A stretch of 32,000 nucleotides of DNA from an uncultured Bordetella sp. (GCA_964599095.1 CAZREB010000017.1:7203-39202); one strand, 5' to 3'; numbered from the stretch's first letter, positions 10,071 through 25,653 are shown. A program made the numbers and translations. The notes: a model not told the origin generated them from the letters alone.

Positions 10071-10071
10071 A

Positions 10072-10998: not shown

Positions 10999-11021
10999 TG
11001 GCCGCAAAACCGCGCGGGCGC

Positions 11022-11996
11022 TCAGGGCACGAGTACGACTTTGCCCTTTACCTGCCGGGCGGCCATCATCTTGAGCGCGTCGGCGGCTTTGGACAGCGGG
11101 AACTTCGCCGTGATGTGCGGCTTGAGCTTTCCTTCGCGATACCACTTGCCCAGCTGCGTCACGCTTTGGATGAATTCCTTGGGCTCGCGCTTGGTGAAAT
11201 CGCCCCAGAACACGCCGACGATCGAGCAGCCCTTGAGCAGCGTGAGATTGAGCGGGATCTTCGGGATGTCGCCGGCCGCAAACCCGACGACCAGCAGGCG
11301 GCCACGCCACGCCGTCGAGCGCAGCGCAAGCTCGGTGTAGCTGCCTCCAACGGGGTCGTACACGACATCCACGCCTTTGCCGCCGGTAATCGACTTGATA
11401 CGCTCGCGCAAGTCTTCGCTCGTGTAGTTGATCAACTCGTCCGCGCCGTGCTGCCTGCAGACTTCCAGCTTGTCGTCACTGGACGCGCACGCGATCACTC
11501 TTGCGCCGAGCGCCTTGCCGATTTCGATAGCCGCGATGCCCACGCCGCCCGCGGCGCCGAGCACCAGCAGCGTCTCGCCCGCCTCCAAGGCCGCCCGGTC
11601 GCGCAGCGCATGGTCCGAGGTTCCGTAGGTGAGGATGAACGAAGCGGCGGTCTCGAAATCCATGCCCTCTGGCATCGGGATCAGGCGGTCGGCCTCGGTC
11701 TTTACTTCCTCAGCGAACGCGCCGGCACCGGTAAACGCAATGACCTTGTCGCCGGCCTTGTGCCCGGTCACGCCCTCGCCGACCGACTTGACCACGCCGG
11801 CAAGCTCGCTGCCGGGAGAAAACGGCAGCGGCGGCTTGAACTGGTACTTGTTCTCGATGATCAGGACGTCGGGGAAATTCACACTGGCGGCCTTCACCGT
11901 CACGACTGCCTCCCCCCTGCCGGCGACCGGCGCGGGAATGTCTTCGTAGACCAGGGTGTCCGGAGGGCCGAAGGCCTTGCAGAGCACTGCTTTCAT
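11022..11996 (-). CDS. NADPH:quinone oxidoreductase / zeta-crystallin-type medium-chain dehydrogenase
   Basis: 324 aa. 'MKAVLCKAFGPPDTLVYEDIPAPV', 'VNFPDVLIIENKYQFKPPLPFSPGSELAGVV' and the nucleotide motif 'LVLGAAGGVGIAAIEI' are present. It lies 23 nt upstream of the ketopantoate-reductase-like gene, so the two are probably an operon. Confidence 0.9.
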   Translation of the reverse strand: MKAVLCKAFGPPDTLVYEDIPAPVAGRGEAVVTVKAASVNFPDVLIIENKYQFKPPLPFSPGSELAGVVKSVGEGVTGHKAGDKVIAFTGAGAFAEEVKTEADRLIPMPEGMDFETAASFILTYGTSDHALRDRAALEAGETLLVLGAAGGVGIAAIEIGKALGARVIACASSDDKLEVCRQHGADELINYTSEDLRERIKSITGGKGVDVVYDPVGGSYTELALRSTAWRGRLLVVGFAAGDIPKIPLNLTLLKGCSIVGVFWGDFTKREPKEFIQSVTQLGKWYREGKLKPHITAKFPLSKAADALKMMAARQVKGKVVLVP

Positions 11997-12078
11997 AGGC
12001 GTTTCGCAGGTCGGGCAATAAGGGAACGGAATGATAGCTTAGGATTGCGGAGTCACTGTGCCCCACCGAGGAGAACGC

Positions 12079-13017
12079 ATGTCCGAGATCGTCCTTCACC
12101 ACTATCCCGCTTCGCCTTACGCGGAAAAGATCCGCGCGATCCTCGGCTTCAAAAAGCTCAAGTGGAAGTCGGTAACCATCCCGGCGGTCATGCCTAAGCC
12201 CGATGTGGTGGCGTTGACGGGCGGCTATCGCAGGACCCCGGTGCTCCAAGTCGGAGCGGACGTGTATTGCGATTCCGGCCTGATCGCCCGCGCTCTCGAG
12301 GAAATCGCGCCTTCACCAACCCTGTTTCCCTACGGCGACACACTGGCGTTGAATGCCATCACCTCGTTTGCTGAAGCGGTGCTGTTCAACAATGCGGTGC
12401 CCCTTGCCTTTACGCCCCGGACCCTGGATGTGTTCTTTCCGGACGCGACGCCAGAGTTCATGGATGCGTTTCGCAAGGACCGCGCCGAGATGCGCAAGGG
12501 CGGGACCGTGCGTCGCGGGCCGATCCACGAGAACCGCGCCACCATGCTGCATTTCCTGCCGAAGATCGAATCGCAGTTCAAGGACGGACGGCCATTCGTG
12601 CTGGGATCCTCGGCGTGCCTCGCCGACTTCGGGCTGTACCACACGCTCTGGCCCGTCTGGCGCGCACCAGGCGTGCGTGCCATCCTGAATCCCTTCCCGA
12701 AGACCGATGCGTTCATTGAGCGGGTGGCCAGGCTCGGCCACGGCATGGCGACGGAGATCGAAAGCCGCAAGGCGCTGGAGATCGCGAAGTCTTCCCGGCC
12801 GGCGGATATCGGACGCGGAATCGCGACCGAGCTCGAGAACCTCAGGCTCGGTGACGCGGTGGAGGTGCTGCCAGTCGATTACGGGTTCGATCCCGTGAAG
12901 GGCGACCTGCTGACCGCGACCGCCGATGAAGTCGTTGTGCGCCGGACTGACCCGCGCGCCGGCACGCTCCACGTACATTTTCCTCGCGTGGGATACGAGA
13001 TGCGAAAGGTGGGTTGA
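12079..13017 (+). CDS. Glutathione S-transferase family protein with a C-terminal extension
   Basis: ATG at 12079 with a GAGGAG RBS at 12068-12073. The N-terminal thioredoxin-like GST fold is 'LHHYPASPYAEKIRAILGFKKLKWKSV...RRTPVLQVGADVYCDSGLIARALE'. Confidence 0.85.
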   Translation: MSEIVLHHYPASPYAEKIRAILGFKKLKWKSVTIPAVMPKPDVVALTGGYRRTPVLQVGADVYCDSGLIARALEEIAPSPTLFPYGDTLALNAITSFAEAVLFNNAVPLAFTPRTLDVFFPDATPEFMDAFRKDRAEMRKGGTVRRGPIHENRATMLHFLPKIESQFKDGRPFVLGSSACLADFGLYHTLWPVWRAPGVRAILNPFPKTDAFIERVARLGHGMATEIESRKALEIAKSSRPADIGRGIATELENLRLGDAVEVLPVDYGFDPVKGDLLTATADEVVVRRTDPRAGTLHVHFPRVGYEMRKVG

Positions 13018-13114
13018 TACAGGGTTATTTGCGCCTTGCGCCGGACGAGCGCGTCGCCACGAATCGAGCCGACGGCGCGCTACGACCGCCAACTTTCACA
13101 CCCGGGGGCCCCGT

Positions 13115-14227
13115 TCAGCGCATCATGCGCCAGTACTGCCACTTCATCGTCGCCGCCGATCCGCCTATGATCGCGACAAAGGTGATGATTGATCCCAATG
13201 CCAGTGTCGAGAATCCGGAAATCCCCTGTCCGATGGTGCAACCAAGCGCGGTCACACCGCCGAATCCCATGAGCGTGCCGCCGATCATGTGGTTGGCGGT
13301 GTCTTCAGCGTCGCGGAAACTCTCCCACCGAAACGTTCGCGTGGCAAGCGAGTAGGCGGTCGAGCCGACGATCACCCCAGCCGCAGAGGCGATGCCATAG
13401 GTGATGATCCTGCTCTTATCGGTCCAGAACATCAGGTATTCGAGGGCATAGGCTATTGGCGCGACGAACGAGAACGACTCCATGCGTCCGGAGTTGGTCG
13501 CGACAAAAACCTCCTCCAGCGTCTTCGGGTCTTCCGCGACGTAGCCGATGCTGCCGCTCACATACCAGCCGGCGACGATCACCAGGCCCGTGACTGCGCC
13601 GCCCAGCGTGTAGTCGAAATTCGCACGAAAGTCCTTCGACATGTAGACAAAAGCAATCAGGCCTGCGCCGGCCAGAAGGCTCAGCCAGAGGATCCAGGCG
13701 CTTAGCTGTCCGCCGAATACTCTGGAGAAGATAGCCGGCAGGTCCTGATTGCCTGCAAGGGTGATGGTCGCCTTCTCCAGCACGCCGACACGGAAGGAGC
13801 CGAACAACCCGCGCAGCGTCATATAAGCCGCGACGCCGAGGAACATGAACACGACGACGGACTTGAGATTGCCGCCGCCGATCCGGATCAGGGTCTTCGC
13901 GCCGCACCCTGATCCCAGCGTCATGCCCACGCCGAACAGGAATCCGCCGACCACGTAGGACAGCCAGGTGAATCGAGGCCCCTGGTACAGAGACTTGGAA
14001 AGATCGACCGCCCCCGCGAGGTGCAGGGCATTGGCGCCGAGAATCGCCACGGCGATCGCGAGCAACCACATGCGAAGGCGGCTCGTCTCTCCCATATTCA
14101 CCCAGTCGGACACCGCGCCCATGGTGCAGAAGTTCGTTTTCGCGCCTATTGCGCCAAAGACTGAGGCGAGCGCGAAGGCCGCGCCCGCAACGTACGGTGC
14201 GAGTTGCGCCGGACCGATCTCGTTCAT
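13115..14227 (-). CDS. yeeE: YeeE/YedE-family sulfur-compound (thiosulfate-type) transporter
   Basis: 370 aa and polytopic. The three conserved Cys-containing re-entrant motifs of the family are present: 'TNFCTMGAVSDW', 'GSGCGAKTL' and 'ALGCTIGQGISG'. It sits directly downstream of a TusA/YeeD-like gene. Confidence 0.9.
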   Translation of the reverse strand: MNEIGPAQLAPYVAGAAFALASVFGAIGAKTNFCTMGAVSDWVNMGETSRLRMWLLAIAVAILGANALHLAGAVDLSKSLYQGPRFTWLSYVVGGFLFGVGMTLGSGCGAKTLIRIGGGNLKSVVVFMFLGVAAYMTLRGLFGSFRVGVLEKATITLAGNQDLPAIFSRVFGGQLSAWILWLSLLAGAGLIAFVYMSKDFRANFDYTLGGAVTGLVIVAGWYVSGSIGYVAEDPKTLEEVFVATNSGRMESFSFVAPIAYALEYLMFWTDKSRIITYGIASAAGVIVGSTAYSLATRTFRWESFRDAEDTANHMIGGTLMGFGGVTALGCTIGQGISGFSTLALGSIITFVAIIGGSAATMKWQYWRMMR

Positions 14228-14339
14228 GCCGTTACGCTCCCAGATTCATCCGCTCCGACGCGGGTGCCGCCATCGCTCCCGTCGCACGGGTCCTCGCGAA
14301 GATCGCTGCCATTGCCCGCGGCGATCGCAGGTGACGGAC

Positions 14340-14567
14340 TTACTTGCGCTTCATCAGGACGATGAATTCCTTGTTCGCCTCGGTTTGCGAAATCAGTTCG
14401 TTGCCGGTCTGCTTGCAGAAGGCTTGGAAATCCTTCACCGAACCCGGGTCGGTGGCGGTGATCCGGAGGATCTGCCCGGGTAGCATGTCGGTGAGCGCCT
14501 TCTTTGCACGCAGGATGGGGAGCGGACAGTTGAGACCGCGCGCGTCGAGGTCCTTGTCGAAGTTCAT
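14340..14567 (-). CDS. tusA: TusA/SirA/YeeD-family sulfur carrier (75 aa)
   Basis: Starting at the ATG at 14567, 'MNFDKDLDARGLNCPLPILRAKKAL...' contains the canonical CPxP active-site motif. The size and single-domain architecture are typical of the family. Confidence 0.9.
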   Translation of the reverse strand: MNFDKDLDARGLNCPLPILRAKKALTDMLPGQILRITATDPGSVKDFQAFCKQTGNELISQTEANKEFIVLMKRK

Positions 14568-15059: not shown

Positions 15060-15096
15060 TAGCCTTCATCCACGCTGAATGCCCGGGAGCCCAGAC

Positions 15097-15699
15097 ATGG
15101 CCGCGCAAATCGATACCGAGACGCTAGACCGCCTGATCAATGAGCGCCTCGACGCGCTGCTGCCGGGCAAATTGGCCGCCCTGGACGCGGCCAGGACGCC
15201 GTCGATGACCATCATTGCGACCAAGGGGACGCTGGACTGGGCCTATCCCCCGTTCATCCTTGCTTCGACCGCCGCCGCGCTCGGCTGGGAAGTTTCGGTG
15301 TTTTTCACCTTTTACGGCCTGACGCTGCTCAAAAAGGACCTCGACCTCAATATCAGCCCGCTCGGCAATCCGGCCATGCCGATGAAGATGCCTTTCGGGC
15401 CGGACTGGTTCAAGAGTGTTGAATGGAACATCCCGAACGCCGTCCAATCGATCATCCCCGGCTTCGAGAACTTGGCCACCGGCCTGATGAAGCAGACCAT
15501 CAAGAACAAGGGCGTGGCAAGCATCGCCGAATTACGCCAGGCCTGTGTGGAGTCGGACGTGAATCTGCTCGGCTGCCAGATGACGGTGGACCTTTTCGGG
15601 TTCACCCATGACGATTTCATTCCGGAAGTCAAAGAGTACTGTGGCGCCGCCTCGTTCCTTGGGCGCGCGCAAAAAGCCGATGTCAATTTGTTTATCTAG
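15097..15699 (+). CDS. DsrE2-like / DrsE_2-family sulfur-relay protein
   Basis: ATG at 15097 with GGGAG 7 nt upstream (an alternative ATG lies at 15079). 'MTIIATKGTLDWAYPPFILASTAAALGWEVSVFFTFYGL' matches the DsrE/F-like fold with a hydrophobic segment. The Cys pair 'ACVESDVNLLGCQMTVD' is conserved. It is divergent from the CsoR-like gene. Confidence 0.7.
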   Translation: MAAQIDTETLDRLINERLDALLPGKLAALDAARTPSMTIIATKGTLDWAYPPFILASTAAALGWEVSVFFTFYGLTLLKKDLDLNISPLGNPAMPMKMPFGPDWFKSVEWNIPNAVQSIIPGFENLATGLMKQTIKNKGVASIAELRQACVESDVNLLGCQMTVDLFGFTHDDFIPEVKEYCGAASFLGRAQKADVNLFI

Positions 15700-15804: not shown

Positions 15805-16293
15805 TCAGGCCTTGCGGATATGGAACTCGTACTCTCCGGGCGCGACTTCACGGGTGTCGAGCAGTTTGTGGCCGGTGGCTTTTGCCCAACTGCGCAAGTC
15901 CGCCCGGATTCCCGAGCAATTTCCGAGAAGACGAAGCACCTCGCCTTTGCGCATGCCGTCCAGCAGCTTCTTTGCCTCGATGATCGGACCAGGACAAGTT
16001 GCTCCGCGCATATCGAGTACGGAATTCGGTGACACCCGGCCGCCCTTGCCTTTGCGAATGTAATAACCGAACCCGCCTTGGGGCCGCTTCGCGACCTTCA
16101 GCACCTCGACATCGCTATACTTGGGCCACGAGCGCAGATCGTCCCGGGTGGCCGGGCAATCGGAAATCAGCAACATGACTTCGCCCGCAAGCAGTTCGTC
16201 GAGGACTCTCTTGGCGCCGAGCAGCGGACCTGGACAGGCGAGCCCCGAAAGGTCGAGGGTGAGATGCGGTTTCGGAAGGGCCGATTTGGCCAT
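15805..16293 (-). CDS. Tandem (two-domain) TusA-family sulfur carrier, 162 aa
   Basis: I chose the ATG at 16293; the rest of the 472-aa track ORF is Arg-rich shadow. There are two TusA modules, each with a CPxP motif: 'LDLSGLACPGPLLGAKRVL' and 'LDMRGATCPGPIIEAKKLL'. Each is followed by a parallel '...DLRSW.K' segment. Confidence 0.85.
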   Translation of the reverse strand: MAKSALPKPHLTLDLSGLACPGPLLGAKRVLDELLAGEVMLLISDCPATRDDLRSWPKYSDVEVLKVAKRPQGGFGYYIRKGKGGRVSPNSVLDMRGATCPGPIIEAKKLLDGMRKGEVLRLLGNCSGIRADLRSWAKATGHKLLDTREVAPGEYEFHIRKA

Positions 16294-16338
16294 GGGCGCC
16301 CCCTTCGGTGCGGCATTTGCTCGCAACACTATACACAG

Positions 16339-17364
16339 ATGATGCAAAATTTTCCGCAGATCGCGAGTACGGTGCAGCGTAACTGCGACATCTCCGATGC
16401 ACGCCACGCGGGGGACTACGGCCTGTGCATATTCCTGCTCAAGATGCGCGAGTTCTATCGCTGGGAGAACGAACTGCCGTTCGCGCGTAAGCTTTCGAAG
16501 GAGCAACTTGGCGAATGGCTGGCGGCCCGCGAGCAACTGTGGGACGGCATCGAGTCGGACGAGTTCCTTCCGCTCCCGCTTGCGAACCGTGAGATTGACC
16601 CGTTCGACGTCGATACTGCCAATCGCGCATTGCTGCCCCACGGCTACGTTTACAGCGCTGGCTTGGGACGCTTTGGTAAGCCGGTGTTCTTCCTCGGCGA
16701 GCTGCAGCGGGTAGAAACGAGATCGGGTTGCACGGTGCTCGTATCGTCTTGCGAGCACGCGCGCGAACTGGCCGCACCGCCCGCGATGCTGCAAGGACGG
16801 ACGATCTTTCTGCGGCAGGAGTCGTTGCGCCGCTACCTGTGGGAAAAGATCGAGGATTGGCAGTGGCACAGGCGGGACAACGCCACGGGGCGCGCCATGG
16901 CCCGCTATGGATTCGTCGCGGACCCTGAGGCGGCTCTGCGGCGCATGGCCGAAGATGCCGCCGAAGCGATGATTCTTCATGAGGTCGGCGAAGCCATGGC
17001 GGGAGCGCTGATCGGCGACGAGTGGCACGATCGGGTGCTGGCCGGAACGAATCCGCAGGTCGAATCGCTTGCGCGGTCGGTCCGCGACCTGCTCGCCGAC
17101 TGCCTGTCTACCTTGCCTGCGCTGATCAGGAATCCCGACGCGAAAGTGCTGCACCTTTACTTTGCCACCCTGGACGCGCCGCGTCGCCAAATGTTCCCCG
17201 AGGTGCTCGATGCCTACGAGCACTTTGTGCTTTCAGGCGCGCGCGACCGCTTGTCGCGACTCGCAAGCGAGGGCGCGGAACACTGGCTGTCGGTTGCGCG
17301 AGGCCTCGTGGCACTCGATCCGCCCGCTCTCGAGGCCACGCTGAAGGCGTTGGTCAGAGGATGA
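16339..17364 (+). CDS. Conserved-looking hypothetical protein (341 aa), family not recognised
   Basis: The ATG at 16339 is the first start downstream of the divergent tandem-TusA gene. The composition looks coding ('GDYGLCIFLLKMREFYRWENELPF...') and a rhodanese gene follows on the same strand. The start is uncertain (another ATG lies at 16444). Confidence 0.6.
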   Translation: MMQNFPQIASTVQRNCDISDARHAGDYGLCIFLLKMREFYRWENELPFARKLSKEQLGEWLAAREQLWDGIESDEFLPLPLANREIDPFDVDTANRALLPHGYVYSAGLGRFGKPVFFLGELQRVETRSGCTVLVSSCEHARELAAPPAMLQGRTIFLRQESLRRYLWEKIEDWQWHRRDNATGRAMARYGFVADPEAALRRMAEDAAEAMILHEVGEAMAGALIGDEWHDRVLAGTNPQVESLARSVRDLLADCLSTLPALIRNPDAKVLHLYFATLDAPRRQMFPEVLDAYEHFVLSGARDRLSRLASEGAEHWLSVARGLVALDPPALEATLKALVRG

Positions 17365-17442
17365 GCCGGGTCTGCGAGGCGATTCAGGGACCCGGAAGCC
17401 GGCCGGGCGCAGCCACGCGTTGTGGGGGATAATGCAGGGCTC

Positions 17443-17838
17443 ATGGAACATCTCGATCCCAGGCAGGCCTACGAGTTTCTCAAGAAGCAAGCAGACGCCC
17501 TGTTCATCGACTGCCGCAGCGAAATGGAGTACCTGTTCGTCGGTCATCCAGTCGGTGCGTTGCACGTGGCGTGGAACGACGGTCCGGACTGGGAGGTCAA
17601 CCCACACTTCGTTGGGCAGGTGAAGAAACTCGCAGGCACCGACCACGCGACGCGCCCCATCGTGCTCATTTGCCGCAGCGGTAACCGGTCCAGGGAGGCC
17701 GGAGAAGCACTCGAGCGCGCCGGCCTCAGGAATGTCTACAACGTCGCGCACGGCTTCGAGGGTGAGTTGAACGACAATCACCAGCGCAGCACGCTCGCCG
17801 GCTGGCGCCACGCGGGGCTGCCATGGGAGCAGTGCTGA
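17443..17838 (+). CDS. Single-domain rhodanese-like sulfurtransferase
   Basis: 'LFIDCRSEMEYLFVGHPVGALHV' plus the active-site loop 'ICRSGNRSREAGEAL' (CRxGxR type). I prefer the ATG at 17443 to the track's GTG at 17422. Confidence 0.9.
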   Translation: MEHLDPRQAYEFLKKQADALFIDCRSEMEYLFVGHPVGALHVAWNDGPDWEVNPHFVGQVKKLAGTDHATRPIVLICRSGNRSREAGEALERAGLRNVYNVAHGFEGELNDNHQRSTLAGWRHAGLPWEQC

Positions 17839-17866: not shown

Positions 17867-18478
17867 CTAAGCCTGAGGCGCGGGGGCGGCGGGTACCGTT
17901 CGCTCAATGAGCTTCCGTACCAGAAGCACCATTTCCGGGGCTTCGATGTCCATCATCTGCTCGGTGACCCATTTGTTGTCGCCGCCCGCGTCGAGATCCG
18001 ACACCATCGCATCGGACACCTTGTCCGAAAAGTAGCTCAGGCAGGCATAGTCGGGAGCAGCCCCGGGAAAATCGAAGGTTGCATAGTCCGCGAAACGTGC
18101 ATTGAGAAGGCTGATGAAAGGCTTGAGGTAATCGCCTGGACCGAGCAGGTCCTGCTGGTTGTTCTCCATGGTCGCGGCCAGGTGGCGGACGGTTTCGGCG
18201 ATCAACGTCGCGCGGTCGGCTTCCGGAATCTTTGCGTACACCGACCGATCGATCAGCTGGACGAGGAACGCAATGAATTCGGTGAGCACGTTCGTTACCG
18301 TTCGGTCGGACCCAAAGCGGAAGCCCTCCCTTTCCATGTGCTTGAAGACTTCGAGCGCGATCTTCCAGACATTCGCGCCGAGAATGCCGGCAACCTCCGG
18401 CAGCGTGCGGGTGCCGTTCTTGCGCCAGCGGGTCTTGACGAGCGCCACCGAAGGGCGACTGCTGCTGAGGATGGCCAT
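17867..18478 (-). CDS. Hypothetical protein (203 aa), family not recognised
   Basis: ATG at 18478 with AGGAA 4 nt upstream. The composition is acidic and helical and looks coding. It is convergent with the rhodanese gene and divergent from the Sel1 operon. Confidence 0.5.
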   Translation of the reverse strand: MAILSSSRPSVALVKTRWRKNGTRTLPEVAGILGANVWKIALEVFKHMEREGFRFGSDRTVTNVLTEFIAFLVQLIDRSVYAKIPEADRATLIAETVRHLAATMENNQQDLLGPGDYLKPFISLLNARFADYATFDFPGAAPDYACLSYFSDKVSDAMVSDLDAGGDNKWVTEQMMDIEAPEMVLLVRKLIERTVPAAPAPQA

Positions 18479-18649
18479 GATTCCTGTCCGGACGATGGTG
18501 AGTGAGGATACCAGCGGGCGAACCAACGCCGCGCTCGGAGCGCGAATCCGGCAGAGTCGCTAAACTACGCGCAATTGAGCGATATTTGAAGCAGCCTTCG
18601 ACCCGTCGGCGCGGCCGCGACGATGCGTTCCGAAGCGCCGGAGAAAACG

Positions 18650-19078
18650 ATGTCGGGACTGGACATGGAGCTGGCCAGCGGCATAGCCGCGTTCGAGGCC
18701 AAGGAGTTCGCCCGGGCGATGCAGTTGCTGCGTCCTTTGGCCGAATCCGGGGATCCGCGGGCGCAATACCGCGTCGCCATCATGGCGCAGGTCGGTTTGG
18801 GCATGGTCAAGGATTGCGCCACCGCGGTCCGGTGGATGAGCGCGGCTGCCGATCAAGGCTTTGCGCTTGCTCAGCACGGACTCGGATTCATGTACTTTCA
18901 GGGCGAGTGCACTCGCGCAGATGCTGCGCAAGCGGCGCGATGGTTCAAGCTCGCTGCCGACCAGGGCATGGCGGGCTCGCAGGCGATGCTGGCGACGATG
19001 TACGAGAAGGGCGTAGGCGTGGAGCGCAACGCCGCGGAAGCCGCCAAGTGGCGCGAACGGTCCGGACAATCGTCCTGA
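18650..19078 (+). CDS. Sel1-like repeat (SLR/TPR-like) protein
   Basis: ATG at 18650 with a GGAGA RBS at 18640-18644. There are three consecutive Sel1 repeats: 'GDPRAQYRVAIMAQVGLGMVKDCATAVRWMSAAADQGFALAQHGLGFMYFQGE...AAQAARWFKLAADQGMAGSQAMLATMYEKGVGVERNAAEAAKW'. Confidence 0.8.
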   Translation: MSGLDMELASGIAAFEAKEFARAMQLLRPLAESGDPRAQYRVAIMAQVGLGMVKDCATAVRWMSAAADQGFALAQHGLGFMYFQGECTRADAAQAARWFKLAADQGMAGSQAMLATMYEKGVGVERNAAEAAKWRERSGQSS

Positions 19079-19080
19079 AC

Positions 19081-19404
19081 ATGCGATTCAGGGTGGTGGT
19101 CGGCCAGCAGGTCTATGCGATCGAGGTTCCCGAGGATCTCCTGCAGCAGGCCGGCGAGTTCCACAGCCGCCTCGACCGCGACATGGACCGCGGCTGGCAG
19201 ATGAGCCGCGAATTCGTTGCGCTGCCCGACCGGCTGCAGCGCTGCCAGATCGTCGCCGAAAGACTGCTCACCAGCCTGCACAACGGCAACGCGGCGAGCG
19301 CCATGCTGATGGCAGGGTATATCGCTATCCGCATGCCGGGCGCCGTAGGGGTCGACATCGACGACTGCGGCGAGATCCAGAACACCGAAGTGCTCTTTTC
19401 CTAG
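19081..19404 (+). CDS. Hypothetical protein (107 aa)
   Basis: The ATG lies 2 nt after the Sel1 stop, and the next gene starts 3 nt after its own stop. That tight packing supports a real gene. No family recognised. Confidence 0.5.
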   Translation: MRFRVVVGQQVYAIEVPEDLLQQAGEFHSRLDRDMDRGWQMSREFVALPDRLQRCQIVAERLLTSLHNGNAASAMLMAGYIAIRMPGAVGVDIDDCGEIQNTEVLFS

Positions 19405-19407
19405 GCA

Positions 19408-20001
19408 ATGACGTTCTCCGGCGGCAGGCTGCGTGAAATCAGGCCGCTCAGCTTCATCTACGAGGCGGTCGAGGCACTGCCGGCCGACGTCTGCACCGAA
19501 GTGATCCGGCGGTTCGAATCGCTGGCCGACCAGCAATACCGCGGCCGCATCGGCGAGGGCGGGATGGAGGCCCCCGCGGTCAAGCGCTCGACCGACTTGC
19601 ATATAAGCGGGCGCGACGGCTGGAGCGACATCGACCGGACGTTGGCGCGGCAACTCGTATTGGCACTCAATGCGCTTGCCGGCGAATTTCCGTTCTTCGC
19701 CGCCAATTCGTTCAAGGACCTCGGTTACAACATACAGCGAACGCTGCCGGGGGAGTTCTATCACTGGCACGTGGACTCGGGGCCGGGAGCATTCAGCCAG
19801 CGCCAGCTGGTCGCAATCTGGTACCTGAACGATGTCCCGGGTCCCGGCGGAGAAACCGAGTTTCCGCTCCAGCAGGTCTTGATCCGGCCGGCACAGGGCA
19901 AGCTGGTCCTGTTCCCGCCTTTCTGGACGCATGTACACCGCGGCGTCACGCTGCAGGCAGGCGTCAAGTACATTGCCACCACGTGGATCAGTTTTGCCTG
20001 A
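19408..20001 (+). CDS. 2OG-Fe(II) oxygenase superfamily protein (prolyl-4-hydroxylase-like)
   Basis: The HxD...H facial triad sits in the expected context: 'FYHWHVDSG' ... 'LVLFPPFWTHVHRGV'. The double-stranded beta-helix signature 'LVAIWYLNDVPGPGGETEF' is also present. Confidence 0.8.
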   Translation: MTFSGGRLREIRPLSFIYEAVEALPADVCTEVIRRFESLADQQYRGRIGEGGMEAPAVKRSTDLHISGRDGWSDIDRTLARQLVLALNALAGEFPFFAANSFKDLGYNIQRTLPGEFYHWHVDSGPGAFSQRQLVAIWYLNDVPGPGGETEFPLQQVLIRPAQGKLVLFPPFWTHVHRGVTLQAGVKYIATTWISFA

Positions 20002-20013
20002 ACGGAGCAGACT

Positions 20014-20688
20014 TTGCTGCTAGCGATTCCGAAGGTCCTCAAACCCGATGAGCTGCAGCTAGCGCGCGCGTGGCTTGCCGACGCCCCGTTCGTCGACGGG
20101 CGATTGTCGGCAGGGTCCGCGGCGCAGAGGGTGAAGAGCAATCAGGAGGTCGATCGAACCGCACCGGACCTGGAGCGGCTCAACCGCCTTGTCATGGGCA
20201 ACCTCGTGCGCCACCCGCTCTATCGCGCGGGAGCGCTTCCGTTGCATGTGGCCAGCCCGTTCTATGCGCGTTGTCGCCCAGGCATGGCGTACGGAGATCA
20301 CCTCGACGACCCGATCATGGGAGCGGATGGCGTAATGTATCGGTCGGATATCGCCGTCACGGTATTTCTGTCGGCGCCCGAGGAGTACGATGGCGGTGAG
20401 CTTGTCATTCGCGCTGCGGCGGGCGAGCGAGCGGTCAAGTCGGCGGCGGGCGATGCCGTGCTCTATCCGGCGAGCAGTATCCACCATGTCAATCCGGTGA
20501 CGCGCGGCGAGCGCCTGGTGGCGGTGACTTGGTTGCAGAGCCTGGTGCGCGATCCCCTGCGGCGCGAATTGCTTTTCGGGCTCAACGAGGCACGCGAGAG
20601 CCTCCTGAGGCGTGAGCCTGATGCGCCGGAGACCGCGCAAGTCAGTGCCGCGTACATGAACCTGATTCGCATGTGGTCGGATATTTGA
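20014..20688 (+). CDS. PKHD-type Fe(II)/2OG hydroxylase (PiuC/YbiX family)
   Basis: TTG start with GGAG 6 nt upstream. The N-terminus 'MLLAIPKVLKPDELQLARAWLADAPFVDGRLSAG' is characteristic of the PiuC/YbiX family. 'YGDHLDDP' (HxD) and 'SSIHHVNPVTRGERL' (distal His/Arg) are present. Confidence 0.85.
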   Translation: MLLAIPKVLKPDELQLARAWLADAPFVDGRLSAGSAAQRVKSNQEVDRTAPDLERLNRLVMGNLVRHPLYRAGALPLHVASPFYARCRPGMAYGDHLDDPIMGADGVMYRSDIAVTVFLSAPEEYDGGELVIRAAAGERAVKSAAGDAVLYPASSIHHVNPVTRGERLVAVTWLQSLVRDPLRRELLFGLNEARESLLRREPDAPETAQVSAAYMNLIRMWSDI

Positions 20689-20696
20689 GGTTTGCG

Positions 20697-20999
20697 ATGA
20701 CCAATACGGAACATTCAATCGAGGCAAGGATCCTGCAGGCGGTAAAGCTGACGCTCGCGGGCGTGATCAGGGACACCGCCACGCCCCACGGCATGCGCCA
20801 TCCCCTTTCCGACTCCACCATCGCGGACATGCGCCAGTGCCTGGTGCTCATCAGCGCGCGCGAGCGCGAACTGGCGCAAGAAGGCGACCGGCAGCCCGTC
20901 GAGCGCCCGCGGTTCGCCGACGAGCCGGCCAGCGGGCAATGCGGCGACAAGGTGATCCACTTTCACAAGGGAACGCCCTCCGGCAACCCGCGAGGCTAG
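20697..20999 (+). CDS. Small hypothetical protein (100 aa) preceding the S24 peptidase gene
   Basis: ATG at 20697 with GAGG 6 nt upstream, 8 nt after the piuC-like stop. 'IEARILQAVKLTLAGVIRDTATPHGMRHPLSDSTIADMRQCLVLISARERELA' looks like an ordered helical domain with a disordered tail. Confidence 0.5.
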   Translation: MTNTEHSIEARILQAVKLTLAGVIRDTATPHGMRHPLSDSTIADMRQCLVLISARERELAQEGDRQPVERPRFADEPASGQCGDKVIHFHKGTPSGNPRG

Positions 21000-21016: not shown

Positions 21017-21331
21017 ATGAGCCAGGACAACTGCAGCTCGATCGAACCCTATGCCCTGCAGGTGCTGGGCGACAGCATGGAACCCGAGTTCGCCGACGGT
21101 TGCGTCGTCATCGTGGATCCCGGCTACGCACCTCGTGACGGCAGTTTCGTGATCGTGGAGTTCGCCGGCGACATCTTCTTCCGCCAGCTGCTCATCGAAG
21201 GCGAGCGGCGCTTCCTGAAGCCTCTCAACCCGAAGTACGGAGGCTTCGAACTGACTCCGCCCTTTACGATCCTGGGCGGTGTGGTGCAGCGCGCCGGCCG
21301 CAGGCGCTCCGAGCGCAGGCACTACGCGTAA
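21017..21331 (+). CDS. Stand-alone S24 (LexA/UmuD-type) peptidase domain protein, no HTH domain (104 aa)
   Basis: ATG at 21017 with GGAG 5 nt upstream. The catalytic Ser motif 'LQVLGDSMEPEF' and the downstream Lys context 'RRFLKPLNP' are present. The whole protein is only the size of the peptidase domain. Confidence 0.8.
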   Translation: MSQDNCSSIEPYALQVLGDSMEPEFADGCVVIVDPGYAPRDGSFVIVEFAGDIFFRQLLIEGERRFLKPLNPKYGGFELTPPFTILGGVVQRAGRRRSERRHYA

Positions 21332-21337
21332 GCCGGT

Positions 21338-21679
21338 TCAGTACCCGCCCTTGCGAAGGCTCTCCGGCAGGCCGGCGATCTTTCCAGCCTGCTTGGAAGG
21401 ATTTCCCGGGAAAAGGTCGAATAGCGTCTTGTTGTCGACTTTCCGGTCCGGCCATTTCTCCTGCATCGCCTTGAGCATCGCGCGGTTGTTCGGTTGCTCG
21501 CCGTTGTGGTTCAGGAAGGCGTCGCGCAGATATTCGATCACGTCCCAGTGGTCCGGTGTGAGAGTCAGGCCTTCCGATGCGGCGATCGCCTCGGCGACTT
21601 CGCGGTCCCATTCGTCGTGCGAGACCAGGTAGCCGTTCTCGGTCGTTTCCAGCACCTTGCCTTTGATCTCGTATGCCAT
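21338..21679 (-). CDS. TusE/DsrC/DsvC-family protein lacking both conserved C-terminal cysteines (DsrC paralogue, 113 aa)
   Basis: ATG at 21679 with a GAGGAA RBS. 'GYLVSHDEWDREVAEAIAASEGLTLTPDHWDVIEYLRDAF' and '...LFDLFPGNPSKQAGKIAGLPESLRKGGY' align along their length with the bona fide DsrC at 27910-28242 ('...[26 protein letters not shown]'). Confidence 0.85.
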   Translation of the reverse strand: MAYEIKGKVLETTENGYLVSHDEWDREVAEAIAASEGLTLTPDHWDVIEYLRDAFLNHNGEQPNNRAMLKAMQEKWPDRKVDNKTLFDLFPGNPSKQAGKIAGLPESLRKGGY

Positions 21680-21690
21680 GGTTTCCTCGT

Positions 21691-22377
21691 CTAGAAAGAA
21701 TCCGACCTGTGGCCCAGGTCGTCGATGTTCTTGTGCGGGATGAACAGGCCGAAGCCGAGCTTGCGCTCGATGCCCAGCCCTTGCTGCTGGAGCAGCAGCG
21801 ACTGGTCCCGGGTAAGACCGGCAAGCATGAGGCTGCGCGCGAGCAGGGCGCGCCCGGGTGTCGTCACCTGCGTGCTGCGACCGCACACTCTGGTGCATTT
21901 CCGGATGCCGAGCGCCTCGAGTTGCTGATTCGCCGAAGACATGAACTGCGCCTCGTCGCCGCTCTGGCCGAAGATCACCCCGCGCGAGTACAACGTGGTG
22001 ATGCGCGACAGCGGCTTCACCGACAGACGGTCGATGCGCAATGGCCAGCCGGCTACCTGCAGGGTGGCGCCAAGCAGGGTTGAAGCCGCCTCGACGCGGT
22101 GCCGCGGCAGGCGCAGCGAAAGCTTTGCCCTATGGGAGAGCTGCAGCAGGTCCTCGGGCGACTCGGGGCGCATCCAGCCGCTGCCCGACCCGGCACCGTG
22201 GATCAGATGCAGGCCCGCTCGCGGCTCGTCCGCGAACCATGGAAGGGCATCGTGAATCGCTTGCGACAGGGCATACGCATGGTCGACCGGCAGGCACCGG
22301 CACGAAATGCCGAAGACCGCATCGACGATATCCGCGAGGGGGGCGGGTCCGGCGGCGGCGTCCGCTTCCATTTGCAC
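21691..22377 (-). CDS. Cas6/Cmx6-like RAMP-superfamily protein (orphan; no CRISPR array or other cas genes in the window)
   Basis: 228 aa. The N-terminus 'VDAVFGISCRCLPVDHAYALSQAIHDALPWF', the '...LSLRLP...' segment and the C-terminal Gly-rich loop 'QQQGLGIERKLGFGLFIPHK' match my recollection of the type I-MYXAN Cas6/Cmx6 pattern and of RAMP G-loops generally. The start is either GTG at 22377 or ATG at 22371. Confidence 0.5.
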   Translation of the reverse strand: MQMEADAAAGPAPLADIVDAVFGISCRCLPVDHAYALSQAIHDALPWFADEPRAGLHLIHGAGSGSGWMRPESPEDLLQLSHRAKLSLRLPRHRVEAASTLLGATLQVAGWPLRIDRLSVKPLSRITTLYSRGVIFGQSGDEAQFMSSANQQLEALGIRKCTRVCGRSTQVTTPGRALLARSLMLAGLTRDQSLLLQQQGLGIERKLGFGLFIPHKNIDDLGHRSDSF

Positions 22378-22382
22378 CTGGT

Positions 22383-23105
22383 TCAGTCCACGGGCAGGAC
22401 GGCCTGCAGGGCCTCACGGTCGAACCACCATTCGTCCTGCACCAGCACGTCGACCACGTTGCGCAGGCGCGGAAGGAACCGCCCCGGGTCGTCGAGCTCC
22501 ATGCGCTCGATCCAGCGATTGAAGTCCTCCTGGCCCGCGACGCCGCTATGGCGGCGGGCGACCGTCGCAAGCAACTGGCTGGCATAGATCAGCAGGTGTT
22601 CGCGTTGCGGCTCCTGTGCCCGCAAATCGACCAGGTAGTAGGCAGTGACCGCCGCGACCGCTGCGCCGTCAGCGTCGGGCGGCGTTTCATCGACCACGTG
22701 CTGGAGCAGCGCGACGCTCAGTTCGGGATCCATCGGGTAAGTGACGGCCAGCCATATCCCCTGGCCGAGGGCGGCGAGAGACTGCGGTTGGTCGCAGACG
22801 AACAGGATGTCGCATGCCTGTGCCGCGCCTTCCCAAGCCTGAGCGGCAAGGTACAAGTCGACCGCCTCCCGCGCCGCCGTCCAGGCCTCGGAATGCGCTT
22901 CGAGCCGCACGAGAGCGCGGCCGAGCTGCAGCAGCAGGTCGGCTCGACGCAGTGGATCGGCCCTTGTCGACAGGGCCGCGAGTTGCTCGCGATGGTCTGC
23001 GACCAGGCGCTTGAGCAGGCCGGTCGATTCCTTGGCATCCTCGATGCTGTCGGCGTTGCCGACCGCGCGATCTTCCTTGATGTACTTGAGGGGGATGTGT
23101 TTCAT
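22383..23105 (-). CDS. Hypothetical all-helical protein (240 aa), family not recognised
   Basis: I chose the ATG at 23105 ('MKHIPLKYIKEDRAV...'); the upstream part of the track ORF overlaps the TauD-like gene. The protein is Ala/Leu-rich, helical-repeat-like and acidic. It is tightly packed between the TauD-like and Cas6-like genes. Confidence 0.6.
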   Translation of the reverse strand: MKHIPLKYIKEDRAVGNADSIEDAKESTGLLKRLVADHREQLAALSTRADPLRRADLLLQLGRALVRLEAHSEAWTAAREAVDLYLAAQAWEGAAQACDILFVCDQPQSLAALGQGIWLAVTYPMDPELSVALLQHVVDETPPDADGAAVAAVTAYYLVDLRAQEPQREHLLIYASQLLATVARRHSGVAGQEDFNRWIERMELDDPGRFLPRLRNVVDVLVQDEWWFDREALQAVLPVD

Positions 23106-23127
23106 GAGTCGAGGCTGGTTTCTTCGC

Positions 23128-24105
23128 CTAGGACAATGGCGTGTCGGAGGGGGCGACGCGATCGGAGTAGCGGGCTCGATAGACCAGCCTGGACTGGCCG
23201 GGCTCGTCGCCGAACGCACTGCGATTGTGGAGCACGTTGTTGCATACGAGGCCCTGCCCGGCCTCGAGCCGCAACTTGAAAACGTGCGGTGAACCGGCAT
23301 CGAAAATGCGGCCCAGGAACGCCGTTGCTGCGCGCGTGACTTCATCCGGACGCCACCTCACGCTGCGCGTGCGCGCGGTATAGCGCATATGGATCCGGCC
23401 GCCGTGGGTCGAAAATACGGGACCGACGCAGGCGGCGCGAATTTCACTGCCGTCCACGACATTGGCGGGGATCGTCATTGCGTCAGGCGCTGTGAGCGCC
23501 TTGACGTATTCGGGGTCCGCGTCGCGCAACAGGATGTAGGCGATTTCGGGATCGAGCAGGCAATTTTCTCCTCCAGAAGCGGCGGGCTGGACACAATGGA
23601 GAATGAAGGCGCAAATGCGTTCCGGCGGCCGGATGTAATAGCCATCCGTATGCCAAAGCAGGCGCTGGTTCGAATAAGGGATGTAGCCCGCGGCGGACTT
23701 TTCCGGTACGGCCTTAAGCGAGCTTACGCCATCCTCGTCCGCGAGCGGGTTCGCATGCAGGTGAGCAAGGCCCAGACATTCGCCCAATCGGAGAGGTATG
23801 GCCTTGTCAGGCACGCCCGCAAGGGGGGTCGAGTAGACCGCCATGTTGGCGACCTCGCAGATCCGTCGAATCTCGCCTACCTCGGCCGCCGTGGGATTGA
23901 GCGGGTCGCGGACCTCGACGACCAGATCTTCCGTGCGGGTCGGGTAGCGGGCCAGCTTGCGCTCACGCCAGCGCAGGTAGTCCTGCGGCCGGTCGAACGG
24001 CAGGTCGATGTCAATCGGCAGCGGAGCGTTCAAGGGTCGCGGGCCAAGCGGCGCAGAGATACAGGGATCGGAACATACCGCAACGGTGTCGAGTGGCGCA
24101 CGCAC
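23128..24105 (-). CDS. TauD/TfdA-family Fe(II)/2-oxoglutarate dioxygenase
   Basis: 'QRLLWHTDGYY' (HxD), 'SGGENCLLD', and 'LVCNNVLHNRSAF' (distal His plus the 2OG-binding Arg) occur in the order expected for the TauD fold. The GTG start at 24105 is uncertain; an internal TTG is possible. Confidence 0.8.
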   Translation of the reverse strand: MRAPLDTVAVCSDPCISAPLGPRPLNAPLPIDIDLPFDRPQDYLRWRERKLARYPTRTEDLVVEVRDPLNPTAAEVGEIRRICEVANMAVYSTPLAGVPDKAIPLRLGECLGLAHLHANPLADEDGVSSLKAVPEKSAAGYIPYSNQRLLWHTDGYYIRPPERICAFILHCVQPAASGGENCLLDPEIAYILLRDADPEYVKALTAPDAMTIPANVVDGSEIRAACVGPVFSTHGGRIHMRYTARTRSVRWRPDEVTRAATAFLGRIFDAGSPHVFKLRLEAGQGLVCNNVLHNRSAFGDEPGQSRLVYRARYSDRVAPSDTPLS

Positions 24106-24327
24106 CGCGATCGCAATTACAGGGGCGACAGAATCACTCGGCTTGGCAGGCAGTGCGCGGGCAATCGCCTAAGAATCAATGGTATCCGCCGGCTCGCGCG
24201 TTCGAGGCTATCTCCAAAGAGATGTATTGCTGCGGTGCGGTCCCCTCCCAATGAGTTCTTCGGCCGCGCGCGGGCGCCTCGTTACACTGGCGCGGCACAA
24301 TGCAGATCGTTTGTTTGGAGGTATCCC

Positions 24328-25653
24328 GTGTCCGACCCGAAAAAGCAGCCCAAGAATCCCGAGCGGCACAGCACCTTTATTCCAATCGAGAAGAAGTCGA
24401 CCAAGCCGTTTCATCCTACGCCGATGCTCGACCAGCTCGAGAGCGGGCCCTGGCCCAGCTTCGTTACCGGGCTCAAGCGTCTGGCGCACGAAAACAACAT
24501 GATGGTCGATCTGCTGGGACAGCTGGAGCATTCCTACAAGACCCGCCTGGGGTACTGGAAGGGCGGTACCGTATCGGTGTTCGGATACGGCGGCGGCATC
24601 ATCCCGCGCTTTTCGGAAGTTGCCAGCATGTTCCCGGAGTCCAAGGAATTCCATACGCTGCGCGTGCAGCCACCGGCGGGCAACCACTACACCACCAAGC
24701 TGCTGCGGCGGCTTTCGGATTCCTGGAACAAGTGGGGGTCCGGCCTGATCGCGTTTCACGGCCAGACGGGGAACATCATGTTCATCGGCACCACGACCGA
24801 GAACACGCAGCATTTCTTCGATGAAATCAACGAGTACGGCTTCGATCTTGGCGGGGCCGGCCCCTGCGTGCGCACCGCGATGTCGTGCGTCGGCGCCGCG
24901 CGCTGCGAGCAGTCCTGTACCAACGAGCACCGGATCCACCGCACGCTGGTCAACAACTTCATCGATGACATGCATCGCCCGGCACTGCCCTACAAGTTCA
25001 AGTTCAAGGTCTCGGGCTGCCCGAACGACTGCATGAACTCGATCCAGCGCGCCGACTTCGCCGTGATCGGCACGTGGCGCGACGCCATGCAGGTCGACCA
25101 GGCGGAGGTCAAGTCCTACGTGGCGAGCCACGGCCGCAAGTACACGATCGACAATGTGATCGCGCGCTGCCCCACCAAGGCGCTGTCTCTCAACGACGAC
25201 GATACTCTGGAAGTGGACAATCGCAGTTGCGTGCGTTGCATGCACTGCATAAACGTCATGACCCGGGCGCTGAAGCCCGGCAAGGACCGGGGCATCACGC
25301 TGCTGATCGGTGGCAAGCGCACCCTCAAGATCGGCGACACCATGGGCACCGTCATCATCCCGTTCATGAAGATGGACACCGACGAGGACTACGAGAAACT
25401 GCGCGATCTGGCTGCCACGGTGGTCGATTTCTGGGCGGAGAACGGCCTGGAGCACGAGCGCTGCGGCGAGATGATCGAGCGCATCGGGCTGGCGAATTTC
25501 CTGGAAGGCATCGGGGTGGAAGTCGACCCCAACATGATCAGCCATCCGCGCACAAGCTCGTACGTTCGGTTGGACGATTGGGATGCGGAAGCCGAAAAAT
25601 GGGTCGCGCGCCATGGCGGCGGCAAAGCGGGCGAAAACGCCCCGCAGGCGTAG
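24328..25653 (+). CDS. dsrA: Dissimilatory sulfite reductase alpha subunit, oxidative (reverse) type
   Basis: GTG at 24328 with a GGAGG RBS 6 nt upstream. 'GPWPSFVTGLKR', 'GYWKGGTVSVFGYGGGIIPRF', the siroheme/FeS Cys cluster 'MSCVGAARCEQSC...SGCPNDC' and the ferredoxin insert 'CPTKAL...CVRCMHCINV' are present. The first 313 codons of the track ORF are a non-coding extension. Confidence 0.97.
   Translation: MSDPKKQPKNPERHSTFIPIEKKSTKPFHPTPMLDQLESGPWPSFVTGLKRLAHENNMMVDLLGQLEHSYKTRLGYWKGGTVSVFGYGGGIIPRFSEVASMFPESKEFHTLRVQPPAGNHYTTKLLRRLSDSWNKWGSGLIAFHGQTGNIMFIGTTTENTQHFFDEINEYGFDLGGAGPCVRTAMSCVGAARCEQSCTNEHRIHRTLVNNFIDDMHRPALPYKFKFKVSGCPNDCMNSIQRADFAVIGTWRDAMQVDQAEVKSYVASHGRKYTIDNVIARCPTKALSLNDDDTLEVDNRSCVRCMHCINVMTRALKPGKDRGITLLIGGKRTLKIGDTMGTVIIPFMKMDTDEDYEKLRDLAATVVDFWAENGLEHERCGEMIERIGLANFLEGIGVEVDPNMISHPRTSSYVRLDDWDAEAEKWVARHGGGKAGENAPQA

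Follow-up and report, generated by a model that had tools for sequence, protein, structure and literature searches.

A CRISPR-independent Cas6 homologue and dsrQ as predicted partners in a conserved accessory operon of the oxidative Dsr sulfur-oxidation pathway

In the global sulfur cycle oxidative DsrAB is a key enzyme whose control, especially by oxygen, is poorly understood. The name dsrQ goes back to Lenk et al. 2012, who according to PMC7596348 and PMC9371685 gave it to a TauD-like gene that diverges from dsrA; the passages of these two papers that deal with it discuss a single gene with a speculative sulfonate-cleaving role, noted mostly in (facultatively) aerobic chemotrophic sulfur oxidisers (PMC7596348). 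Similarly, paralogues of DsrC that lack cysteines have been described as RspA-type (PMC9371685, PMC8477390). For example, the Cys-less DsrC-like protein MHY1_00075 of the alphaproteobacterial methanotroph Methylovirgula thiovorans, encoded three genes from the dsrQ gene MHY1_00078, was interpreted as an RspA-type regulator (PMC9371685). Recruitment of Cas families from adaptive immunity is also on record: the exapted derivatives of CRISPR systems, namely the Streptomyces cas5-6-7-8 set with STAND, HRAMP and the CRISPR-associated transposons (CASTs), keep several Cas subunits or guide RNAs and have defence or mobility functions (PMC8730458). Here we describe a locus in an uncultured Bordetella sp. 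(GCA_964599095.1 CAZREB010000017.1:7203-39202; this stretch of 32,000 nt is called the window, and coordinates are window positions) in which, unlike those derivatives, one Cas6 homologue sits inside an energy-metabolism operon, together with a predicted dsrQ and a Cys-less DsrC-like gene. On sequence evidence we regard this operon as a conserved, CRISPR-independent accessory operon of the oxidative, or reverse, Dsr (rDsr) sulfur-oxidation pathway.

The open reading frame (ORF) list and a read of the minus strand place four minus-strand genes at 21338-24105, divergent from dsrA:

23128-24105, minus strand: dsrQ, TauD-superfamily Fe(II)/2-oxoglutarate dioxygenase, 325 aa as called, GTG start
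22383-23105, minus strand: g2, acidic all-helical protein, 240 aa
21691-22377, minus strand: cas6L, CRISPR-independent Cas6 homologue, 228 aa, GTG start
21338-21679, minus strand: dsrCL, Cys-less DsrC/TusE-family protein of RspA type, 113 aa, RKGGY end
24106-24327, no strand: dsrQ-dsrA shared divergent control region, from an intergenic alignment of 31 loci
24328-25653, plus strand: dsrA, first gene of dsrABEFHCMKL, from its ORF and translation

Along the operon the intergenic gaps are 22, 5 and 11 nt, the second becoming 11 nt if cas6L starts at the alternative ATG at 22371, which yields the 226-aa form carried by databases. The sequence GAGGAA lies upstream of the dsrCL ATG, and the convergent neighbour, an S24-peptidase-like gene, has its end at 21331, 6 nt from that of the operon. 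On the other side 222 nt separate the operon from the GTG start of dsrA at 24328, which is preceded by GGAGG. An earlier note on this DNA had described the same four genes with the same gaps and flanking distances, and had read their products as a TauD-like protein, a helical protein without a family, a Cas6/Cmx6-like protein and a Cys-less DsrC; the ORFs and sequence agree with that layout, and all four family readings hold by Pfam, NCBIfam and fold comparison.

Synteny was assessed in a tblastn table and by a count over unique loci, with only those loci scored that had enough flank. The betaproteobacterial set, gathered by context look-ups and a scan of one genome per species, comprised 50 loci, all from metagenome-assembled genomes labelled Casimicrobiaceae, Usitatibacter, Burkholderiales or Betaproteobacteria; in 48 species-level betaproteobacterial genomes, the module adjoins dsrAB at each locus that has enough flank. 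A scan seeded with remote representatives supplied the distant set; it returned 80 loci, mostly from marine sediment, and the counts refer to 78 distant metagenomic loci with Cas6 proteins 35-55% identical. Throughout the beta clade dsrQ lay upstream (40/40), dsrA was divergent (34/34), a DsrC-like gene followed downstream (41/41) and the 240-aa gene stood in the middle in all cases; at the distant loci the corresponding counts were 36/40 for dsrQ, 24/25 for divergent dsrA and 28/31 for the DsrC-like gene. This arrangement is far beyond chance and recurs in essentially every related locus examined. Indeed, the synteny tracks dsrAB across beta- and gammaproteobacterial lineages, as expected of the dedicated accessory module of dsrAB that the earlier note had proposed, and the counts from both sets decisively dispose of the idea that the quartet is syntenic in no other genome. 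The DsrA and DsrB proteins beside the module are 88-96% identical in all related betaproteobacterial loci and about 70-88% identical in distant ones, and the cas6L ORF is intact and conserved, at 35-100% identity and in dsr context, in about 126 unique loci. More broadly, relatives of Cas6L number 1544 among the 90%-identity clusters of a large protein collection; at 50% identity the number of clusters is 879 with E <= 1e-3 and 138 with E <= 1e-30. Gaps within the beta-clade operons measure 10-28 nt and stop and start codons overlap in relatives, both of which fit co-transcription.

The module also extends to other lineages in altered forms. A search with a 42%-identical gammaproteobacterial Cas6 copy reached Thioalkalivibrio sulfidiphilus, in which dsrABEFHCMKL is divergent from genes for TauD (314 aa), a 63-aa protein, Cas6 (229 aa) and DsrC (113 aa). 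In the gammaproteobacterial lineage of loci L054 and L059 the order is TauD, a 67-aa protein and Cas6, and there is no adjacent DsrC-like gene. A permuted module lies next to dsrAB at positions 9781-14397 of locus L143 (CM001438.1, GCA_000244995.1), with the order DUF6967 (75 aa), Cas6 (212 aa), DsrC-like (109 aa), a 205-aa protein, TauD (315 aa), Fer2 (492 aa) and S24 (114 aa); the Cas6 of this locus is without the insertion that marks the subfamily described below, and its 205-aa protein is related to a 219-aa protein of the window. The components of the module thus appear to travel together even in changed order. The only clear exception is L096 (9445-10687), in which a protein of about 60 aa and Cas6L are found with no dsr or TauD gene within 10 kb; this is an 86-kb low-GC contig with partial local duplications (9503-9575 versus 9694-9765, and 9565-9690 versus 9859-9984).

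The middle position is the variable one. The g2 protein (240 aa) is acidic, with an isoelectric point (pI) of about 4.5, and has no match in Pfam, NCBIfam or PADLOC, yet its homologues number more than 3400. Its AlphaFold2 (AF2) model is all-helical and poor (pLDDT 62), and Foldseek returned only weak, non-significant TPR-like matches for it (E >= 0.018). Homologues of g2 are present in 40/40 beta-clade loci and 14/40 distant loci. Outside the window's clade, nearly all lineages encode between dsrQ and cas6L a different acidic protein of about 60 aa (pI ~4.5), with the consensus MLxLSEILLQ..SF.EL...GE.FFRMDVKPPFPDTPENWEDxLEAAF, also given as ...FFRMDVKPPFPDTPENWEDRLEAAF; it was found in 78 fetched loci (for example L057 9796-9987, L059 9805-10008 and L096 9445-9633). 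Of the 40 distant loci whose flank sufficed, 25 have it as their only middle gene and 14 have it alongside a g2 homologue. This small protein is not present in the window and belongs to no Pfam family; the possibility that it is a g2 homologue was ruled out (hhalign probability 0.8%). We therefore do not take the quartet as the general form: the window's version is clade-specific, the ~60-aa protein replacing or accompanying g2 elsewhere, and the constant core of the wider module is dsrQ and cas6L, which the DsrC-like gene joins almost without exception and to which one or two acidic partners are added.

The product of cas6L is a Cas6 homologue by sequence and fold, in agreement with the earlier suggestion that the 228-aa protein is related to Cas6/RAMP proteins. 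In profile searches it matches PF09559 (E 1.9e-55, 188 bits against a cutoff of 26.7), TIGR02807 cas6_cmx6 (118.4 bits against the curated cutoff of 98.85) and the PADLOC Cas6 models (E 3e-54). Among sequences in the PDB it matches 8fcj_B, the type I-B Cas6 of a CAST Cascade, at E 5e-10. An AF2 model built from 36 homologues (pLDDT 88) superimposes on 8fcu_B/8fcj_B with Foldseek TM scores of 0.76-0.81, followed by Pyrococcus Cas6 (PfCas6) and then Cse3; all 36 PDB matches at E <= 0.001 are Cas6 or Cse3 chains except the weakest one. Model and alignment agree on two ferredoxin/RRM-like domains and a C-terminal glycine-rich loop, GLGxxRKLGxGLFIPHK in Cas6L, of which GLGxxRKLGxGLF is conserved in the alignment. 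The two-RRM architecture, the G-rich loop and one aligned His are thus common to Cas6L and the solved 8FCJ/8FCU chain B: His57, which is invariant in Cas6L, aligns with the His of GIHPI in 8fcj_B, and His33 aligns with Asn. Several Arg/Lys residues are invariant as well. Unlike the solved protein, Cas6L carries a subfamily insertion of 9-12 residues, SG(S/N)GWxRP (residues 64-72), directly after the conserved GxHxIH, and the dsr-linked proteins share an LPxDHA motif; insertion and motif are both missing from solved Cas6, and of the 150 nearest representatives of 50%-identity clusters about nine in ten have both. The group is also near-neutral (median pI 6.2-6.7, net charge -1 to -3), as against pI 9.3 and a charge of +6 for the solved type I-B Cas6, which fits a role other than bulk RNA binding. 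Across clades 27 positions are invariant, and Cas6L appears to be under purifying selection. Longer relatives of Cas6L were also considered as gene fusions (Rosetta stone), a candidate that was dropped because the extensions look like mis-called starts.

The module has nothing to do with CRISPR immunity. Direct-repeat and tandem-repeat scans found no CRISPR array in the 32-kb window, and searches of its ORFs with Pfam and PADLOC found none of the cas neighbours cas7, cas5, cas8, cas3, cas1 and cas2; in fact, no window ORF besides Cas6L matches a PADLOC defence model. No cas genes were present within +/-8-10 kb in L001-L006 and L057-L061, and the neighbours of Cas6L in relatives are sulfur genes. 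Repeats were scanned in one flank, that of the relative L096, and no array features were seen there. The only cas neighbours seen anywhere were cas2/cas1 (16162-16690) in L145, a gammaproteobacterial contig, about 7.5 kb downstream of the module and separated from it by an IS605-type TnpB, dsrL and another DsrC-like gene; this proximity is probably coincidental. Public pipelines label Cas6L in sulfur oxidisers as "type I-MYXAN CRISPR-associated protein Cas6/Cmx6" or "CRISPR-associated protein Cas6". Automated annotation arrives at this call because the TIGR02807 score exceeds the equivalog cutoff; with no array and no cas neighbour at the locus, "type I-MYXAN Cas6/Cmx6" is a family label and not a functional one. 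The naming is a systematic over-annotation that could inflate CRISPR-Cas counts, and hundreds of such calls in sulfur oxidisers tell nothing of CRISPR content.

The gene at 23128-24105 is, judged by its family and place, a dsrQ. Its product matches PF02668 TauD (E 2.7e-17, 64 bits against a cutoff of 27), and family, place and orientation relative to dsrA are the same as for the dsrQ of the literature, with the gene upstream of dsrA and in the opposite direction in 58/59 loci with enough flank. In addition to the profile match, DsrQ has the HxD...H triad and the 2-oxoglutarate/anion-binding Arg typical of the TauD/TfdA Fe(II)/2-oxoglutarate superfamily: the iron triad H152/D154/H293 and the arginines R306/R310 are invariant in 97/97 unique homologues. 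In TauD the Arg pair binds anionic groups. This invariance suggests an active dioxygenase under selection, and DsrQ is predicted to be an active, O2-consuming Fe(II)/2-oxoglutarate enzyme. Neither NCBIfam nor the PDB sequence search places DsrQ at equivalog level with TauD proper or another named enzyme. The closest NCBIfam models are TmpA (40 bits against a cutoff of 400), TMLH and BBOX, all far under their cutoffs, and TmpA is also the sole PDB sequence match (E 4e-6). By these comparisons DsrQ would not be taurine dioxygenase itself, and its characterised relatives TmpA, trimethyllysine hydroxylase and butyrobetaine hydroxylase are all remote.

The fourth protein, DsrCL, matches PF04358 DsrC (E 8e-33) and TIGR03342 (101 bits against a cutoff of 53.5). 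It does not belong with TusE, given a score against the TusE equivalog NF008562 of 92 bits, under the cutoff of 191, and the missing reactive Cys. In true DsrC the C-terminal arm carries reactive cysteines into DsrAB. The 113 residues of DsrCL, which is acidic (pI 5.2) and has the tail KQAGKIAGLPESLRKGGY, include zero cysteines, as the earlier note had claimed for a protein of DsrC fold, and its C-terminal arm, compared with that of the window's true DsrC, has no CysB-X10-CysA. RKGGY-COOH forms the C-terminus of 102/102 module-linked DsrC-like copies, which are 44-100% identical (in the window the tail codons are 21338-21352), and Cys is present in just 8/103 copies; the copy of the permuted locus L143 ends GKGGY. 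This arm is two residues longer than the PTGCV arm of DsrC, and its being invariant and non-reactive implies a specific docking site. DsrCL fits the RspA-type definition used in PMC9371685, a DsrC fold without CysA, and like RspA-type proteins it lacks redox-active C-terminal cysteines and is encoded near dsr genes; its subgroup differs in having its own invariant RKGGY arm and in being tied specifically to dsrQ and cas6L. The proximity of MHY1_00075 and MHY1_00078 in M. thiovorans suggests the same module in Alphaproteobacteria, where the intervening genes 00076 and 00077 are undescribed.

Upstream of the DsrC-like gene two local variations were observed. In marine lineages (L066-L140) a spacer of 80-330 nt precedes it and contains a recurrent TA(T/A)nAT-(T)CGCGC, for example GCGCTTTGTATCATTCGCGC, which looks like a putative promoter of its own. 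An ORF of about 125 aa on the opposite strand (MFDPITLPFGAKMLFNTVKLKPGV..., ABM/Dabb-like by eye) separates cas6L from the DsrC-like gene in several beta-clade genomes (L019 10681-11217; also L022, L033, L037, L042, L047 and L055).

Between the divergent genes, the alignment of 31 dsrQ-dsrA intergenic regions has a common order of two TATCYCCAAAG direct elements, a -10-like TCGTTACACTG, a short leader and GGAGG. In the window the corresponding features are:

24209-24224: operator-like site 1, TATCTCCAAAGAGATG
24241-24256: operator-like site 2
24283-24288: -10-like TACACT

The TATCYC half-sites of the beta clade stand at fixed positions, about -117 and about -83 from the dsrA start. Gamma and marine lineages have as their first element the 16-bp palindrome TATCCC-N4-GGGATA, which lies about 104-180 nt (for the most part 130-176) upstream of dsrA (for example L057 8630-8700 and L059 8760-8800), with the variants ATATGCC-N4-GGCATAT and TACCC-N5-GGGTA. 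In lineages other than the beta clade, the palindrome has T·G and C·A mismatches at about equal frequency, a parity that fits a DNA operator for a dimeric regulator and not a strand-specific RNA hairpin. We predict that the dsrQ operon and dsrAB are transcribed divergently from a shared control region with a putative operator. The palindrome was also considered as an RNA hairpin, since T·G mismatches dominate in the beta clade; they do so only in this closely related group, and a DNA operator is the simpler account. The extent of the region depends on the start of dsrQ. Conservation of the protein sets in at about residue 21 and there is an in-frame TTG at 24033, which is possibly the true start, so that the intergenic region could be about 294 nt and not 222. 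A 13-nt DNA motif, (T/A)TGCGGTA(C/T)GTTC, is kept across the clade at 24071-24083, out of frame in the window; in some relatives it includes the annotated dsrQ ATG.

What the module does can be approached from the oxygen dependence predicted for DsrQ. We infer, with confidence evenly divided, that it is an oxygen-linked regulatory or maintenance module of rDsr, in which DsrQ would hydroxylate a partner while Cas6L and the acidic proteins serve as adaptors. With O2 and 2-oxoglutarate, DsrQ would hydroxylate a partner that the other module proteins present to it, most plausibly the invariant, flexible C-terminal RKGGY arm of the DsrC-like protein, whose counterpart in true DsrC enters DsrAB, or Cas6L itself; the Cas6-fold protein with its acidic partner (g2 here, the ~60-aa protein elsewhere) would act as the binding adaptor, and the outcome would be rDsr activity or expression tuned to O2 availability, not a supply of substrate. 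Three O2-dependent oxygenases cluster here, namely DsrQ and two further 2-oxoglutarate-Fe(II) oxygenases that recur in the neighbourhood, and in Ruegeria thiosulfate induces a standalone rDsr at 2% O2 and not in air. A functional analogy, and only that, may be drawn with the Fe(II)/2-oxoglutarate prolyl and asparaginyl hydroxylases of hypoxia-inducible factor, in which an O2-dependent enzyme is placed to couple O2 to a partner protein; DsrQ differs in being of a TauD/BBOX-like subfamily and not PHD or JmjC. A bolder form of the proposal, and one we think unlikely, is that a Cas6 subfamily (of the 150 nearest 50%-identity clusters, about nine in ten) was exapted from CRISPR into energy metabolism and, with DsrQ, a small acidic partner and an RKGGY-tailed Cys-less DsrC, forms an O2-sensing switch that gates rDsr, via protein hydroxylation or RNA. 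If true, this would account for rDsr running at low O2 and not in air; no Cas6 before it would have had a role outside defence and CRISPR, and a globally important pathway of the sulfur cycle would gain a regulatory layer that has been missing.

Several points count against an oxygen-linked hydroxylation module. The hydroxylation target is a guess, and the nearest characterised relatives of DsrQ (TmpA, trimethyllysine hydroxylase and butyrobetaine hydroxylase) act on small molecules. The L054/L059 lineage, which has no adjacent DsrC-like gene, indicates that the core partner of DsrQ may be Cas6L and not the DsrC-like tail. The spacer or opposite-strand gene before the DsrC-like gene in some lineages means that co-transcription is not universal. 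Lastly, because the G-rich loop and the aligned His are kept, Cas6L may bind or cleave RNA.

This last point leads to a rival account, in our estimate rather improbable, in which the module is an RNA-level regulator: Cas6L would bind or cleave a structured RNA, process or stabilise dsr transcripts or its own, or sequester a small RNA, and the other three proteins would modulate it. The genuine Cas6 fold with its retained loop, the invariant His57 aligned with a His of the solved type I-B enzyme and the invariant Arg/Lys residues all speak for it, and there is an RNA connection in the DsrC/TusE family in that TusE works with MnmA-tRNA. RNA processing, which the earlier note had raised as a possibility, nevertheless found no support in the local non-coding regions, which hold no conserved hairpin: the cas6L-dsrCL spacers of 36 lineages, when folded, gave no common hairpin, and Rfam at gathering thresholds gave 0 matches. 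The near-neutral charge of Cas6L, unlike that of basic Cas6 enzymes, and the absence of a G-U bias among palindrome mismatches in lineages other than the beta clade, a sign of a DNA operator, also argue against the account. One hairpin was followed as a candidate Cas6L target, a 7-bp stem with a 5-nt loop (CGACCTG GGCCA CAGGTCG; 21703-21721, minus strand) at the very 3' end of cas6L, just upstream of the ribosome-binding site of dsrCL. Its sequence includes a rare AGG codon for Arg; it was also flagged by a terminator scan, and is conserved in the beta clade and absent in marine lineages; its pairing shows no covariation beyond that of shuffles (84.9% versus 84.5%, with one compensatory change), and it was rejected.

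Other accounts take one member of the module as the key to the whole. Sulfonate scavenging, in which DsrQ would oxygenolytically free sulfite from an intracellular or ambient sulfonate and its neighbours would handle substrate or product, draws on the TauD superfamily membership of DsrQ and on its intact active site, including the Arg pair. It encounters the difficulty that sulfite is the product, not the substrate, of oxidative DsrAB, so that such a supply would not feed the neighbouring enzyme, which weakens the earlier note's idea of a sulfite feed from sulfonates to Dsr. Moreover, the conserved set holds no sulfonate transporter or desulfonation partner, the similarity of DsrQ to TmpA, TMLH and BBOX, weak as it is, exceeds that to TauD proper, and no reason emerges for the obligate linkage with a Cas6-fold protein and a Cys-less DsrC. 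We consider the account decidedly unlikely; the idea itself is not new, being the earlier speculation on dsrQ (PMC7596348, PMC9371685). If DsrCL were the active part on its own, as a DsrC mimic that plugs DsrAB, DsrEFH or DsrMK or as a regulator that binds the dsr promoter, with the others as passengers, this would accord with the proposal of RspA-type paralogues as regulators (PMC9371685), with the specific docking partner implied by the invariant tail and with the conserved operator between dsrQ and dsrA. This is very unlikely in our view, given that the DsrC-like gene is no better conserved than dsrQ and cas6L, which persist in a lineage without it, a lineage that still has a palindromic operator, and that DsrCL is acidic. 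Finally, a decayed type I-B/MYXAN CRISPR-Cas remnant left beside dsr by chance could claim the hidden Markov model score over the NCBIfam equivalog cutoff; the intact ORF in the same dsr context across its many unique loci effectively refutes this by synteny, and the lack of arrays or cas genes and the invariant positions expected under purifying selection make it exceedingly improbable.

The composition of the operon had been put forward in the earlier note as undescribed. That does not extend to dsrQ (Lenk et al. 2012, via PMC7596348) or to RspA-type DsrC, both of which were already named; it stands, within the literature searched, for the Cas6-like partner. Neither a full-text literature search nor the CRISPR-exaptation review (PMC8730458) yielded any mention of a Cas6 homologue in dsr clusters, and the passages on dsrQ in PMC7596348 and PMC9371685 are silent on the Cas6-like, small-protein/g2 and RKGGY-DsrC partners present here. 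As far as the search reached, descriptions appear to be lacking also for the small acidic protein, the RKGGY tail and the conserved operator, as they are for the Cas6 partner. On present evidence dsrQ seems never to come alone: it is predicted to be part of a conserved module, and the best conserved of its partners there has the Cas6 fold. As an example of one Cas protein taken up into a metabolic operon this would be a clean case, and by tying a Cas6 subfamily and an RspA-type DsrC to the known dsrQ, the module is of interest to CRISPR-evolution and sulfur-cycle specialists alike. For sulfur microbiology it offers testable candidates in dsrQ, cas6L, the RKGGY DsrC paralogue and the putative operator TATCCC-N4-GGGATA. 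Cultured carriers include Thioalkalivibrio sulfidiphilus and Methylovirgula thiovorans; beyond these carriers, Ruegeria, known here for its rDsr, offers base-editing genetics.

The wider neighbourhood of the operon in the window comprises the following genes:

15079-15699: DsrE2
16360-17364: Sfum_1244/DUF6866 protein
17422-17838: rhodanese
17867-18526, minus strand: 219-aa protein without a family
18623-19078: Sel1-repeat protein
19078-19404: 107-aa protein without a family
19408-20001: 2-oxoglutarate-Fe(II) oxygenase
20014-20688: 2-oxoglutarate-Fe(II) oxygenase, YbiX/PKHD-type
20673-20999: 108-aa protein without a family
21017-21331: S24 peptidase domain protein

This extended neighbourhood recurs with the module even in distant lineages; genes found near it in near and distant lineages alike are the PKHD/YbiX-type oxygenase, a second 2-oxoglutarate oxygenase, a protein of about 107 aa, the Sel1-repeat protein, a protein of about 219 aa and the Sfum_1244/DUF6866 protein. 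Elsewhere the window encodes rpoB/rpoC and a YeeE-like transporter, the latter in a run of sulfur-handling genes with DsrE2, the Sfum_1244/DUF6866 protein and the rhodanese, in addition to the two further oxygenases and dsrABEFHCMKL.

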